Position numbers and translations under genes: made by a program. Below the pieces are notes generated by a model. That model saw nothing but the letters and a program-made list of their open reading frames with translations, was not told where the DNA came from and ran no database searches. From Paramecium tetraurelia (lineage: Eukaryota), in NCBI GenBank assembly GCA_000165425.1, contig CT868108.1, positions 372,001-436,000 of the forward strand: a DNA stretch of 64,000 nucleotides, written 5' to 3'. Numbering within the stretch: the stretch's first letter is position 1; each line of letters starts with the position of its first letter. Shown one piece after another: positions 48,782 through 53,620 of this stretch.

Positions 48782-50702
48782 TCACTATTCAATAATTTCA
48801 TTCATATGTTTCTTATATAAACTTCCGTAAACTTGGTTCAATCCTTTCCACCCACTGTCAAGAAGAATGGCAGCGGCAACGCTTTCAAATATATCACCAT
48901 ATAATTTGGGGATCTCATTGATATGAGGTTTTAAACCCATCCTAATAGTTTGTTCTCCCATAAACTTATTTCCCAATAATTATTATTTCCAAGTAGATAG
49001 TAGTCCTGGATTTAAGATCCAATTTGGATTTCTTTATTGTTTTTCCCTTGCTGCTCGAAAAATGTAAGAGATAACAAGCAATTCAATGGCAGCATCGCCT
49101 AAAAACTCTAATCTATCATATTATAATGGATTTATAGCTATTTCGAATAATTGAGGATTATTAAATTTATAGTCCCTGATTTCGATATGCTCAGTATATT
49201 CTGTAATTGGTTCGAAATCAAAGAGGATGTCTTAATAGAAAGATATAGGAAAGTTTGTCCGTCTCAAAATAATAATATATTCATAGAGACTTTGAGTAAC
49301 TTCAAATACACCACCAACAATTGCTTCATAGATATCTGCCTTCTGACTTATTTGCAGTTGTTTATTATCACTAGAAATCATATCATTGACTAAAGGATTT
49401 CGAATTTATTTGAAATGCAAATCCTAATTGATTATATAGTGTTATAGACCTAATTATTCAAATAATTAAGCTAAAAATGTATTCATAATTAACCGACTTC
49501 TTAAGGATGTCATTTCTCCTTCGTCTAACAATTCGTATTGTCTAAAGATATCTACAGTTACGACATATTTCAAAACAGAATCCCCCAACAGTTCTAGATT
49601 TTCATAGTTTCTTTTGAAATTGGATGAAGAAGTTACTATAGCTTCTTCAACCACTTGATAATTTAGAATGCTTTCGACTGAGTCTTGATGACTCCAAATC
49701 TTGAATTAGCATATTAGTGAATGAAAGAGAATGCAAACAATATCATAGGTTTTATAATCTAGAGGATATTCTTACAATTATTAGATGGGTATTAATTGAG
49801 GTTACTTTAAAGGTTGGATAGGTTTGAGTGATGTGCAATACTCTGATGGAATGCCTGAGTTACACTAATCACATTCATTTGTGCTAAATGCCATATTTGG
49901 AACATTCCGATGAAATTAATTGATATGTAAAGTATATGCGCTAAAGGCTATATATTCATGGAAACTCTGATAATTTTATCTATAGGATTGCACATTCCCA
50001 GGAATGAGTTTTTCTAGATGCAACAATTCATGAACATTCATTCCTTCTATCTCATTTAGAGTTACTCCATAATATTATAATGCTTCATCCAGATTCTAAA
50101 ATGCCCTTTATTGCACTAATTTCTAGAAATATGATATTGCTTTCTCATTGCTGTTTATGATATCATATACTGAAAAGGATACAAACGGATTTTTTTTATT
50201 AACATAAATTCGATTAAAATCTGTAAACTCATTTTGAGCTGAATTTGATAGTTTAAATTAATTGAATTCACTCATGTTTTCCCCGTACAACAGGATATTA
50301 TTTCTGTTCTCATTCTTAATATCAAAATAGGACTCAAAAGGTCGATATTTTTATTGTATATATGATAGACTGTTGGCCTTGTAGCAATCTCCGAAAAGGA
50401 AGCAATTGTATAAATAAATCTAATAAAATTCATCTTTAGAAAATTAACAAAGCCGACTTTCAATAAAGTTGATTTTCCAATTAAACATATATTGTAATTT
50501 GTTGCTCTTTAAATATCCCGGAGTAATTAGATAGATGTCATATTGATTATCATCCTTGGTGATCTATATTTTATTTTAATAAGCTAGTATGCGATCATTC
50601 ATTTTCCTATATGAACTACCTTAATAATAAATAATCTATACTCAACTGATTTGGAATCCTTCCTATGAGTTGATGATTAAATTAACTTTAAATTTACTTC
50701 AT
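48782..50702 (-). CDS. DCL: ciliate Dicer-like (Dcl) protein: tandem RNase III domains, no helicase
   Basis: RNase IIIa NYENLELLGDSVLK...KADIYEA and RNase IIIb YDRLEFLGDAAIE...GDIFESVAAAILLDSG. One 22-nt intron, 633 codons. Paralog number not determinable by eye. Confidence 0.9.
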
Positions 50703-50751
50703 TTAATTATAAAAATTAATATACTAAAAAAATAGATATAGACAGATATGT

Positions 50752-50820
50752 ATCGATGGAATTAAAGTAAATTGGAATATGAATTGGATTGGATAGGGTG
50801 GAATAGGATTGGGATGGAAA
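50752..50820 (-). repeat. degenerate pentamer array (TCCAA/TCCTA/TCCAT/TCCAC) just upstream of the Dcl ATG
   Basis: The + strand reads ggaattaaagtaaattggaatatgaattggattggatagggtggaataggattgggatggaaa, unusually G-rich for this intergenic DNA. Confidence 0.45.
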
Positions 50821-50894
50821 CTATTAAATCATTATATATATAGAGAAGTACCTTAGTGCAAACATAATGTTTTTGTAATATTTTATTTGATAAT

Positions 50895-51631
50895 TCAAAG
50901 CTACCAAGGAGTTCTATCCAAAGTTGCTATGGTTTTATTGCAGAACTTAAAATCAGTGTCATCTCTATATCCAACACAGAAATAACTAAGATTATGTTTT
51001 AATCAATTACCTTCCTGTAGATTAATTGTACTTTGGTCTTCCACCATAACAATGTGGACATCTTGGTATTGATCCTAATACTATTCCATCAGCAATTTTA
51101 TTCAACAATTCGTCTTTGTTTCCACTCATACTCTATAAGTTTTTTCTTAAATTATCCTTTATTTCTTAATTTGTCTTTGATGACCAATCCTTGATTGCCT
51201 TTTAGTAAGCTTAATATTAATCTAAGGTGTATGCTGCGTATTTGACAGGCACTTTAGGTTAAGAGTCAGCCTTAGGAGCAACTGGCTTTAACACTTTCTT
51301 TTTATCATCCTTCTATTCTTTGACATTTTATTTTTTTGAAACTTATTTTTTGGCGGGAGCAGCCTTTGCTTTTTTAGGCACAACCTTTTTAACAGGAGCT
51401 GCTTTAACTACTGTTTTTTTTTGTGGTTTTCTAGAAACAACTTTCTTTTTTGCTGGCACAACCTTTTTGGTTTCTTTCTTAACTACCTTTTTAGGCACTT
51501 TCTTCTAGATGACTTTTGTAACCTTCTTCACAACTTGCTTTTTAACTGTTTTAGAGACTGTCTTGGAGACTGTCTTCTTTGTTGCAGCACTTTATCTAGC
51601 TAATATAGAATAAGCCAAGAAAAATACCCAT
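50895..51631 (-). CDS. histone-H1-like Lys/Val/Ala/Pro-rich protein fused to a PADR1 (PARP1 Zn3) zinc-binding domain, 227 aa
   Basis: MARQSAATKKTVSKTVSKTVKKQVVKKVTK...KAAPVKKVVPKKAKAAPAKK, then IKDNLRKNLQSMSGNKDELLNKIADGIVLGSIPRCPHCYGGRPKYNQSTGSYFCVGYRDDTDFKFCNKTIATLDRTPWQL*. Introns 51600-51627 and 50986-51010. Confidence 0.85.
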
Positions 51632-52451
51632 TTATATCAATTGATAATTTGTAATAATAATTCAAGATATACATCGCATTAATTAAACAATAAATAGATA
51701 ATCAACAGAATGTGCACAGATTATTAATTTGCCAAATTATAAATAAACATTAAATATTATCCTTTTTTTGAACATTAGAAATAATTAATAATGGTGTAGC
51801 TTCTATTCATTCCCTTTAATATAAAATCAAAGTTTTCAGTATAGTTTTATTAAATAAATAGAGACATCTAACTGTGTTATGCTAGTTTTTTATTTAATTA
51901 CATTCTAAGAATAAAGCAAAATCAATTTTAGCAATTACTCAAAAAAAATTGACAATTACATCATTTTTCATCAATTAGTTTTATTATATTTTGTTGCTAT
52001 TGATGGATAATTAATATTTGCATTTAGTTCCTTAACAGGACAGAATCAATAAGAATTCATAAGTTTATTAAGACATATATAATATAATTACAATTCCTAT
52101 AAAAGTTTGTAATCTTAAAATATATCTAATTCGCTAATGTTTACAAATAGAAAATCATTTAGTATTAGAATAAGACTATTTTGCAGAATAAACTATAAAT
52201 GCAATTATAAATTAAATGAAATTCAAGAGTTTATTGATTTTACTACCTGATAATAGAAATTTATTCATTATAGAGATTTATAAGAGTAATTGAACCGTCT
52301 CTTTTGGATCGTTCTTACGTTATTAGAGATTTAAGTAAATAATTTCTAATTTTAATGGAGCTTAGTTTTATTCATTAGATGATAATAAATAATAAAATCA
52401 TATTATATAAGAATTATGAATATAAAAAGAAATTTATTATTTATTATAATA

Positions 52452-53620
52452 ATGCAAAAGTTATTACTAATTACATCATTGGTTGTTTCAATTTTTGCCG
52501 AGAACACTAACTACGCCTATACTAATTGGAATACAATCCAAGGAACTGTGAGTATGAATTCAACTCTTGAGAACTATGAATAAACCTTATGGTTGGTTTA
52601 TATTTCAATTGGAGTTCCAGCTCAAAATTTTACAGTCTAAATTGACACAGGGTCTAATATTTTATGGGTTCCTTACACAGATTGCTCAAGGTGTGATATT
52701 TCAACTAGATATAATCCTAATGGATAAGAATATTTTTCTCCAAATGGTAGTACTTATTATTAAGCTTACGGAAGTGGAGAATGCAGCGGATATGTAGCTA
52801 CAGATGTGGTAAGTATATAGGATACAGTAATAAACACAACATTTGCTATGATGTTTGCAACCATGGAGCAAGGTTTTGCATTCCCTACAGTTATGGATGG
52901 TATTATGGGTATTTCTAACAATCAAACATTCACAAATATCTTTTAAACTGCTTTCTAAGCAGGTTAGATACCAACTGAATAGTATGGCTTAATATTGAAT
53001 TAAGCTCCTTTACCATCCTACTTGATTTTTGGAAGCATAGATCCAATTTTACTTAATTAGATTTAATGGGTTATTCCTAATGATATCTATAGATGGAAAT
53101 TGTTTATAAATGCCTTTACTATCAATGGATAAGATTATTCATCATTGATGGGGTCAGTTTAATCTGCAATTTTAGATTCAGGAACTACAGATTTACTAGT
53201 GACCGAAGGGCTTTATGGAGTTATCCTTAAAGATTATTTGGTACCTGGAGGTTGTTTCATGAGCGGTGGTATTTATTGTCCTTGCCAACCAACTGCTGAT
53301 TAATTGGCTTACCTACCAAATATCACAGTGTCATTTAATGTTGTCAATGTGACAATTCCCTTTTTCAATATATTATAAGGATACTATGTCGCAGGTTACT
53401 TTAATGTATTATTACATTAGCTACTGGAGATGTTTGCCAAGTCATGATGTCCTACTTGAGTGGTCCTCCCTTTATGGTCTTTGGTGATCCTGCATTATTA
53501 TCCATCATTCCAATATTTGACAAGACTGCAAACTAAATTGGTATCATTGGAGGTGTTCCAAATGGAATTCCAAATGGAGATTATCCTGGAAATGATGAAA
53601 TAGATGAAGCAGTAGGATGA
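52452..53620 (+). CDS. secreted pepsin-family (A1) aspartyl protease
   Basis: Signal peptide, IDTGSNILWV, YGSG, DGIMGI and AILDSGTT. One intron, 381 codons. Confidence 0.92.

Follow-up and report, generated by a model that had tools for sequence, protein, structure and literature searches.

The closest described relative of the protein considered here is the Zn3 domain of human PARP1 (PF21728 and PF08063; 2RIQ, 2JVN, 4DQY), in which a helical subdomain is joined to a C4 zinc ribbon. Zn3 is reported to contribute to DNA binding, to the relay of the signal to the catalytic domain, and to chromatin compaction (PMC4081085), and it belongs, together with Zn1, WGR, and CAT, to the set of domains that is essential for PARP1 activation (PMC5175350). 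The same source places Trp-318 of PARP1 at the interface formed by Zn3, WGR, and CAT, and reports that a Zn3 defect in human PARP1 can be complemented between molecules, albeit inefficiently (PMC5175350). A 2019 study of Tetrahymena describes PARPs without PADR1 and zf-PARP domains, both of which are carried by six other proteins, and its authors propose that the Tetrahymena enzymes need additional factors (PMC6502085). In the clade 1A PARPs of Paramecium tetraurelia, WGR, PRD, and catalytic domains are described alongside ankyrin repeats (PMC2964712).

We have analyzed a window of 64,000 nucleotides from P. tetraurelia (contig CT868108.1, positions 372,001 to 436,000 of the forward strand), in which a gene at 50895-51631 encodes a protein that shares the fold of PARP1 Zn3, the four cysteines of the two domains being aligned and an aromatic residue occupying the W318 position in both. 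Unlike its counterpart in PARP1, however, the Paramecium domain is free-standing and C-terminal, lies behind a disordered basic tail, and is accompanied by none of Zn1/Zn2, BRCT, WGR, and the catalytic domain. Sequence identity to PARP1 Zn3 is only about 20-22%, the zinc ligands are spaced more widely (C-x2-C-x15-C-x11-C, with insertions of 3 and 2 residues relative to PARP1), and a SAP-like G-x-K-x-[DE]-L signature persists in the helical part. The Tetrahymena proteins likewise hold PADR1 apart from the PARP catalytic chain but are reported with zf-PARP where the Paramecium protein has a Lys-rich tail (PMC6502085). Two further groups of proteins invite comparison. Linker histone H1, including the macronuclear H1 of Tetrahymena (Hho1), is likewise small, very basic, Lys-rich, and largely disordered; the Paramecium protein, in contrast, lacks the winged helix, has a zinc-binding PADR1 domain, and carries a Val-rich tail devoid of CDK-type S/TPxK sites. 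To our knowledge, a PADR1 domain is present in no H1. SAP proteins, such as PIAS, the Ku70 C-terminus, DEK, and Tho1, resemble the helical subdomain, which scores as Pfam SAP in many relatives of the Paramecium protein and gives weak structural matches to SAP domains (Z 2.7-3.9), but their SAP motif has no zinc ribbon attached and the Paramecium protein itself gives no Pfam SAP match.

The gene lies on the minus strand and consists of three exons separated by two tiny introns, the coding region running from the ATG at 51631 to the end of the TGA stop codon at 50895. Exon 1 (51628-51631) comprises only the ATG (51631-51629) and the first base of codon 2 (G, 51628). Intron 1 (51600-51627, 28 nt) and intron 2 (50986-51010, 25 nt) both have the form GTA...TAG, the latter splitting codon 198 (AG|T). 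Exon 2 (51011-51599, 589 nt; translation P0001) encodes the Lys-rich tail, the helical subdomain, and the first zinc knuckle, CPHC, and contains the match to Pfam PADR1_N at residues 131-175. Exon 3 (50895-50985; coding 50985-50898, followed by TGA at 50897-50895) supplies the second half of the zinc ribbon, with Cys-201, Cys-213, and Phe-210, and the C-terminal PWQL. The spliced coding sequence of 684 nt specifies 227 amino acids (25.5 kDa, pI 10.24). Under the ciliate code, nine TAA and four TAG codons are read as glutamine; the frame holds no internal TGA, and a TGA lies in frame 10 codons upstream of the ATG. Orthologs of 222-228 amino acids are annotated in P. octaurelia, P. sonneborni, and P. 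primaurelia, and these are 94.7% (over the full length), 81.1%, and 83.7% identical, respectively, to the spliced product.

Transcription of the gene was followed in three oligo-dT stranded RNA-seq runs (X20, X21, and X22) that bear the same species label. Reads cover 50911-51617 at a depth of about 30-170. Almost all first mates map to the plus strand, as expected of a minus-strand mRNA in stranded libraries of the usual type. Reads that end at 51600 continue with CATTTATATC, which corresponds to 51629-51638 (5, 21, and 14 reads in X20, X21, and X22, respectively), and reads that end at 50987 continue with TCCTGTAGATT, which corresponds to 51013-51023 (14 reads each in X21 and X22). Because these loose ends match both exon junctions exactly, introns 1 and 2 are removed as modeled; moreover, the match of CATTTATATC to 51629-51638 means that the 5' UTR extends to at least 51638. 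Depth is zero over 51618-52425 and does not exceed about 4 in the interval 50608-50910, and joints to other exons are not reported in the three runs, which together argue against splicing into a longer PARP. An initial sequence-only reading of the locus had proposed a stand-alone gene without a catalytic PARP domain, and this stands: splicing into a longer PARP was looked for in the RNA-seq data and was not seen, and the transcript ends within the 737-bp locus. An mRNA level of some 27-80 reads per kb per million can be estimated roughly from the depths, assuming a genome-wide baseline; depth is similar to that of the neighboring aspartyl-protease gene and far above that of the neighboring RNase III gene. 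By this rough estimate, mRNA abundance is moderate and not histone-like. One assembled contig, from run X3, retains intron 2 and lacks 26 nt across the stop codon.

Residues 121-227 (50898-51243, with intron 2 inside) form a PADR1/Zn3 domain. In Pfam, Zn_ribbon_PADR1 (PF08063) scores 33.3 bits against a gathering cut-off of 25.1 (E 4.1e-8) on the ortholog P0002, which is 94.7% identical to the Paramecium protein under study. On the separate exon pieces of the locus the same profile gives 12.6 and 16.0 bits, covering profile positions 2-18 and 20-42, respectively, the two halves of the zinc ribbon falling on either side of intron 2. PADR1_N (PF21728) scores 18.2-18.6 bits on the locus protein and P0002, below its cut-off of 25.7, whereas many relatives exceed this cut-off in the Pfam scan; among 17 aligned relatives (E<=0.01), PADR1_N matches 16 and the zinc ribbon matches 14. 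Searching the PDB with a profile of these 17 relatives returns PARP1 Zn3 chains at E values between 1.6e-7 (4opx) and 2.5e-5, and places Cys-182, Cys-185, Cys-201, and Cys-213 in register with the four PARP1 cysteines. The first pair of zinc ligands (Cys182-Pro-His-Cys185, 51049-51060), which is aligned to the first cysteine pair of the PARP1 chain (C-E-E-C), is invariant in all 17 sequences of alignment A1. Between the cysteines of the second pair (Cys-201 and Cys-213, 50940-50978) lies Phe-210 (50951-50949), which is aligned to PARP1 Trp-318, the family T-D-F corresponding to T-A-W of PARP1 in the HMMER profile alignment. This position is occupied by phenylalanine or tyrosine in all 12 sequences of alignment A1 that reach the column.

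Structural comparisons lead to the same assignment. The AlphaFold2 model of the ortholog has pLDDT values of 83-94 over residues 121-228 and contains three helices and a three-stranded zinc ribbon, and the top 13 Foldseek matches are all PARP1 Zn3 structures, the best being 2riq (E 7.8e-6, target-normalized TM score 0.62, rmsd 2.5 over 101 columns). In a VIA scan of 48,161 chains, 2riq and 4opx are recovered with Z scores of 12.1 (rmsd 4.7, 107 aligned) and 11.1 (rmsd 2.4, 101 aligned), respectively, and the next unrelated fold has a Z score of 4.9. This structural match takes in the helices of the PADR1_N subdomain as well. Weak structural likeness of residues 127-178 or so to helical motifs of the Rho N-terminal domain, SAP, and LEM type is also seen (Z 2.7-3.9). 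No PARP catalytic, WGR, or regulatory domain is matched in the locus protein by Pfam, nor is SAP (PF02037). A homodimer prediction for the PADR1 domain with zinc gave a score of 0.16 against a mark of 0.32, which speaks neither for nor against a dimer. Since Pfam, the PDB profile search, Foldseek, and the VIA scan agree, we regard the PADR1/Zn3 assignment as sound, and it bears out, in both sequence and fold, the identification of the C-terminal domain made at the outset. The motif string on which that identification had been based needs one correction: YFCVGY, the fourth cysteine, and the terminal R-T-P-W-Q-L-stop are as described, but the spacing given as G-x3-C is G-x4-C (ADG-IVL-G-SIPR-CPHC). 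More generally, the orthologs, the RNA-seq data, and the domain model uphold the original observation as that of a real, expressed, and conserved gene.

The N-terminal 120 residues (51244-51631, with intron 1 inside) form a disordered tail rich in lysine, valine, alanine, and proline (34.2% K, 20.8% V, 10.0% A, and 8.3% P), with a net charge of +38 and a pI of 10.95; in the AlphaFold2 model of the ortholog this region has a pLDDT of about 50 and no secondary structure. The sequence-only reading was correct about its K/V/A/P-rich character, although the length it gave, about 130 residues, exceeds the 120 or so that we measure. What it had called repeats is biased composition: TRF finds in the DNA a single 12-nt unit present 2.7 times (51545-51576), so the tail is compositionally biased rather than repetitive and a true repeat array is rejected. 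The protein does begin with MARQSA once intron 1 is removed. As a specific histone-tail-like signal, however, this start is rejected, since relatives open with MAK, MAR, or MGK and continue with basic residues of no particular pattern. The tail contains no S/TPxK site, and its match to the Pfam HC2 'histone H1-like' family is weak (E 0.0033, 18 bits against a cut-off of 40).

Proteins of this kind are numerous: when 1.84 billion cluster representatives were searched with the profile, 920 matched at E<=1e-3, of which 426 reached E<=1e-10 and 43 reached E<=1e-30. Among the best 150 relatives, 147 are no longer than 400 amino acids. We also scanned 147 of these best 150 with Pfam (E<=1e-4), leaving out P0004, P0005, and P0017 as already present in alignment A1. 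At least one PADR1 family is matched in 134 of the 147 scanned relatives, and a PARP catalytic, WGR, or BRCT domain in none. A zf-PARP finger precedes PADR1 in 15 (13 above cut-off), which amounts to the Zn1 plus Zn3 set, and HHH_8 and DUF5710 domains are found in 14 and 4 relatives, respectively. One protein, P0122, passes Pfam for HC2, and 11 match no Pfam family. In addition, Pfam SAP is matched over the PADR1_N residues in 36 of the 147 (30 at or above cut-off), which gives the helical subdomain a SAP-like character in much of the family.

When 165 proteins were sorted by their N-terminal regions with a local HMM, the PADR1 domain was found to end within 25 amino acids of the C-terminus in 150. 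The region ahead of it is a basic tail in 55 proteins, mixed-charge and Lys-rich in 35, zf-PARP in 15, HHH_8 in 14, DUF5710 in 4, and of other kinds in 20; in the remaining 22 it is shorter than 30 amino acids, these being fragments or minimal forms. Of the 55 basic-tail relatives, 31 carry one or more [ST]P(x)K/R motifs, and the N-terminal region of P0008 consists of 34% K, 18% A, and 18% P. These domain combinations identify PADR1 as the constant C-terminal module of the family, joined to a variable DNA-binding or damage-sensing head that is either a DNA-end sensor (zf-PARP, HhH) or a plain basic tail. The nearest Atlas cluster, defined by protein-language-model features, comprises 123 members; 21 of these have a known phylum, most often Ciliophora; weaker rows contain rotifer and haptophyte proteins (scores 0.89 and 0.87), which we treat as leads only. 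None of 249 pattern matches in viral contigs was confirmed as a relative, and none of 61 candidates for longer or fused forms of the domain reached E<=0.01, which is weak evidence.

As to function, members of the family probably bind DNA or chromatin. For the protein at this locus we tentatively favor, at a little short of an even chance, an adaptor that binds DNA and provides ciliate PARPs with Zn3 in trans. The locus would then encode a small, non-catalytic nuclear protein, the disordered basic tail of which would bind DNA or chromatin electrostatically and independently of sequence. The PADR1/Zn3 module, with its SAP-like helices and C4 zinc ribbon, would sit on the DNA backbone as Zn3 does inside PARP1, and would dock in trans onto a PARP, at its WGR and helical (PRD/HD) domains, presenting to WGR/PRD the zinc-ribbon face that bears Phe-210 at the W318 position. 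Nuclear localization, DNA binding, and PARP partnership are inferred here. Because ciliate PARPs carry ankyrin repeats rather than zinc fingers, a protein of this type would couple DNA binding to PARP activity. The sequence-only reading had suggested a PARP partner at DNA breaks; partnership fits the domain combinations of the family, and the Tetrahymena PARPs that lack PADR1 and zf-PARP, better than a linker histone does, but the basic-tail subtype has no break-sensing finger and may therefore not act at breaks at all. Moreover, PARP2 and PARP3 are reported to be active without any Zn3 (PMC4081085), implying that WGR-type PARPs need no such factor. Affinity purification of Tetrahymena PARP6 yielded histones and ribosomal proteins, and the main-text section describing it names no PADR1 protein (PMC6502085). 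The PADR1_N score, lying as it does below the Pfam cut-off, also counts against supply of Zn3 in trans.

The main alternative, possible although doubtful, is that the protein is a chromatin architectural factor independent of PARP, in which the tail and the SAP-like/zinc-ribbon domain would bind DNA at two points and so compact or bridge chromatin; it may plausibly be likened to the catalytically silent N-terminal half of PARP1. The tail resembles the H1 C-terminal domain in charge (34% K, net +38) and is disordered, and still more H1-like tails occur among relatives, as in P0008, in the 31 of 55 basic-tail members with [ST]P(x)K/R motifs, and in P0122 with its HC2 match. The SAP matches on the helical subdomain in 36 of the 147 scanned relatives point in the same direction. 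Zn3 is said to contribute to chromatin compaction by PARP1 (PMC4081085), and a 2026 preprint reports binding of linker DNA and catalysis-independent compaction of trinucleosomes by Zn1-Zn3 together with BRCT, although deletion of Zn3 lowered compaction only moderately (PMC13320883). Furthermore, according to two papers from 2022, Paramecium has no identified H1, in agreement with what the sequence-only reading had said on this point. One of these papers, however, puts Paramecium linker DNA at only a few bp, a shortness that its authors tie to the missing H1. Also weighing against a chromatin architectural role are the absence of the H1 globular domain, the Val-rich tail without S/TPxK sites, the moderate mRNA level given by our rough estimate, and the rotifer and haptophyte proteins in the nearest clusters, which are leads only. 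Rotifers and haptophytes have canonical H1, and the family is thus probably present, as a lead, in lineages that possess this histone.

We consider it unlikely that the protein is some other basic nucleic-acid binder, whether a nucleolar or ribosome-associated RNA-binding protein or an acceptor or decoy for ADP-ribose, in which PADR1 would serve as a generic zinc-ribbon interaction module. Lys-rich disordered tails of the kind seen here are common among nucleolar and ribosomal proteins, and the weak likeness of residues 127-178 to RNA- or DNA-binding helical motifs is compatible with such a function. Nevertheless, the domains with which PADR1 is combined in relatives (zf-PARP, HHH_8, and SAP) are DNA-binding or DNA-repair modules, and PARP1 Zn3 is the sole strong structural relative.

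Less likely still is the proposal that Paramecium, for which no H1 is recognized, uses the protein as a non-canonical linker-histone analogue, with a SAP-like zinc-ribbon (PADR1) head in place of the winged helix and charge neutralization left to the Lys-rich tail. When first made, this suggestion drew entirely on the composition of the tail, and it has not fared well: the globular domain is absent, the tail favors valine over alanine and is free of S/TPxK sites, and Paramecium linker DNA is reported to be only a few bp long. The Pfam Linker_histone winged helix finds no match at E<=10 in exon 2 or at E<=0.01 in the family. Ciliate macronuclear H1 also lacks a globular domain, so the missing winged helix does not exclude an H1-like role. 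Were the analogy to hold, the family would constitute an unrecognized class of eukaryotic chromatin architectural protein and the source of the compacting N-terminus of PARP1. Finally, the view that no real gene exists here, the frame having stayed open by chance in AT-rich ciliate DNA or belonging to a pseudogene that is mis-spliced, as the intron-retaining contig of run X3 without 26 nt at the stop codon might suggest, is excluded for practical purposes by orthologs 81-95% identical in three other Paramecium species, hundreds of relatives, spliced and stranded coverage in three RNA-seq runs, and a confident domain model.

The domain and its automatic annotation are already known, the ortholog being called 'PARP1-like PADR1 domain-containing protein' in UniProt. 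Stand-alone ciliate PADR1 proteins are mentioned for Tetrahymena in a single sentence and a supplementary figure (PMC6502085). Our literature searches found no characterized stand-alone PADR1 protein, and those on Paramecium linker histones or H1 and on P. tetraurelia PARPs found nothing on the PADR1 family. Within the literature searched, there appears to be no description of how large the family is, of its modular heads, or of its SAP-like helical subdomain. A 2010 survey of PARP evolution states that PADR1 occurs only in PARPs (PMC2964712). Set against that survey is a family of 426 representatives (E<=1e-10), in the scanned members of which PADR1 stands apart from the catalytic domain and is combined with varied DNA-binding heads.

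RNAi by feeding and GFP tagging are routine in Paramecium, and the gene, being small and expressed, is within reach of both. If the chromatin architectural role is correct, the protein would bear on how chromatin is organized in a macronucleus without H1, a question that is posed explicitly in the two 2022 Paramecium papers. If, on the other hand, the protein supplies Zn3 in trans, ciliates and some other protists would run a split PARP1 damage sensor, and would thereby offer a natural system in which DNA sensing is separated from catalysis.

The PADR1 gene lies on the minus strand (50895-51631) between two protein-coding neighbours. Upstream, and on the opposite strand, is a eukaryotic aspartyl protease gene (52416-53447, plus strand; Pfam Asp, 112.8 bits), which encodes a protein with a signal-peptide-like N-terminal start and is well expressed, with a depth of 48-160 in the stranded oligo-dT RNA-seq runs X20-X22. 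The downstream neighbour is an uninterrupted frame of 606 aa (48782-50602, minus strand) in which two stretches match Pfam Ribonuclease_3 (115 bits in total), giving a pair of RNase III domains; the product resembles a short Dicer-like protein. RNA-seq depth over the first ~800 nt of this gene (49800-50602) is approximately 0-6 in X20-X22.

An assembled contig from a further run, X3, has a length of 844 nt, a depth of 25.5, and an extent in the window of 50731-51600; it ends exactly at the boundary of intron 1 (51600) of the PADR1 gene, and intron 2 (50986-51010) is retained. This contig lacks 26 nt at position 50875 (region 50875-50901); the gap covers the stop codon of the PADR1 gene, and its exact placement depends on the coordinate convention. 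Placed at 50875-50900, the missing segment is a GT..AG interval on the plus strand, which would mean that the contig derives from an antisense spliced RNA. Placed at 50876-50901, it is instead a TA-bounded deletion of 26 nt, which is IES-like in size. The gap is seen in none of the X20-X22 reads, the depth at this site being just 0, 5, and 5, respectively. Elsewhere in the coding region, an extra T is present behind position 51345, within an A/T homopolymer, in 5 of 37 X20 reads and in no X21 or X22 read; this insertion probably arose as an artefact of sequencing or slippage.

Several metagenome-derived relatives (P0017, P0018, P0019, and others) end in ...CFGGR, directly after the first zinc knuckle and near the position of intron 2 in the Paramecium gene. 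These look like gene calls that have been cut at an intron or a reassigned stop codon, and many database entries for the PADR1 family are therefore probably truncated.

Scanning 147 relatives (P0020-P0166) against Pfam (E<=1e-4) also revealed small, non-catalytic proteins in which PADR1 is combined with DUF5710, present up to four times per protein (P0064, P0072, P0087, and P0095), or with the helix-hairpin-helix domain HHH_8 (14 relatives). No description of either architecture was found in the literature searched. Moreover, Pfam SAP and PADR1_N, the latter being the profile for the helical subdomain of Zn3, match the same residues in 36 of the 147 relatives, and a G-x-K-x-[DE]-L loop is conserved across the family. 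Taken together, this overlap and the retained loop suggest that Zn3 of PARP1 contains, as its helical half, a SAP motif that has diverged.
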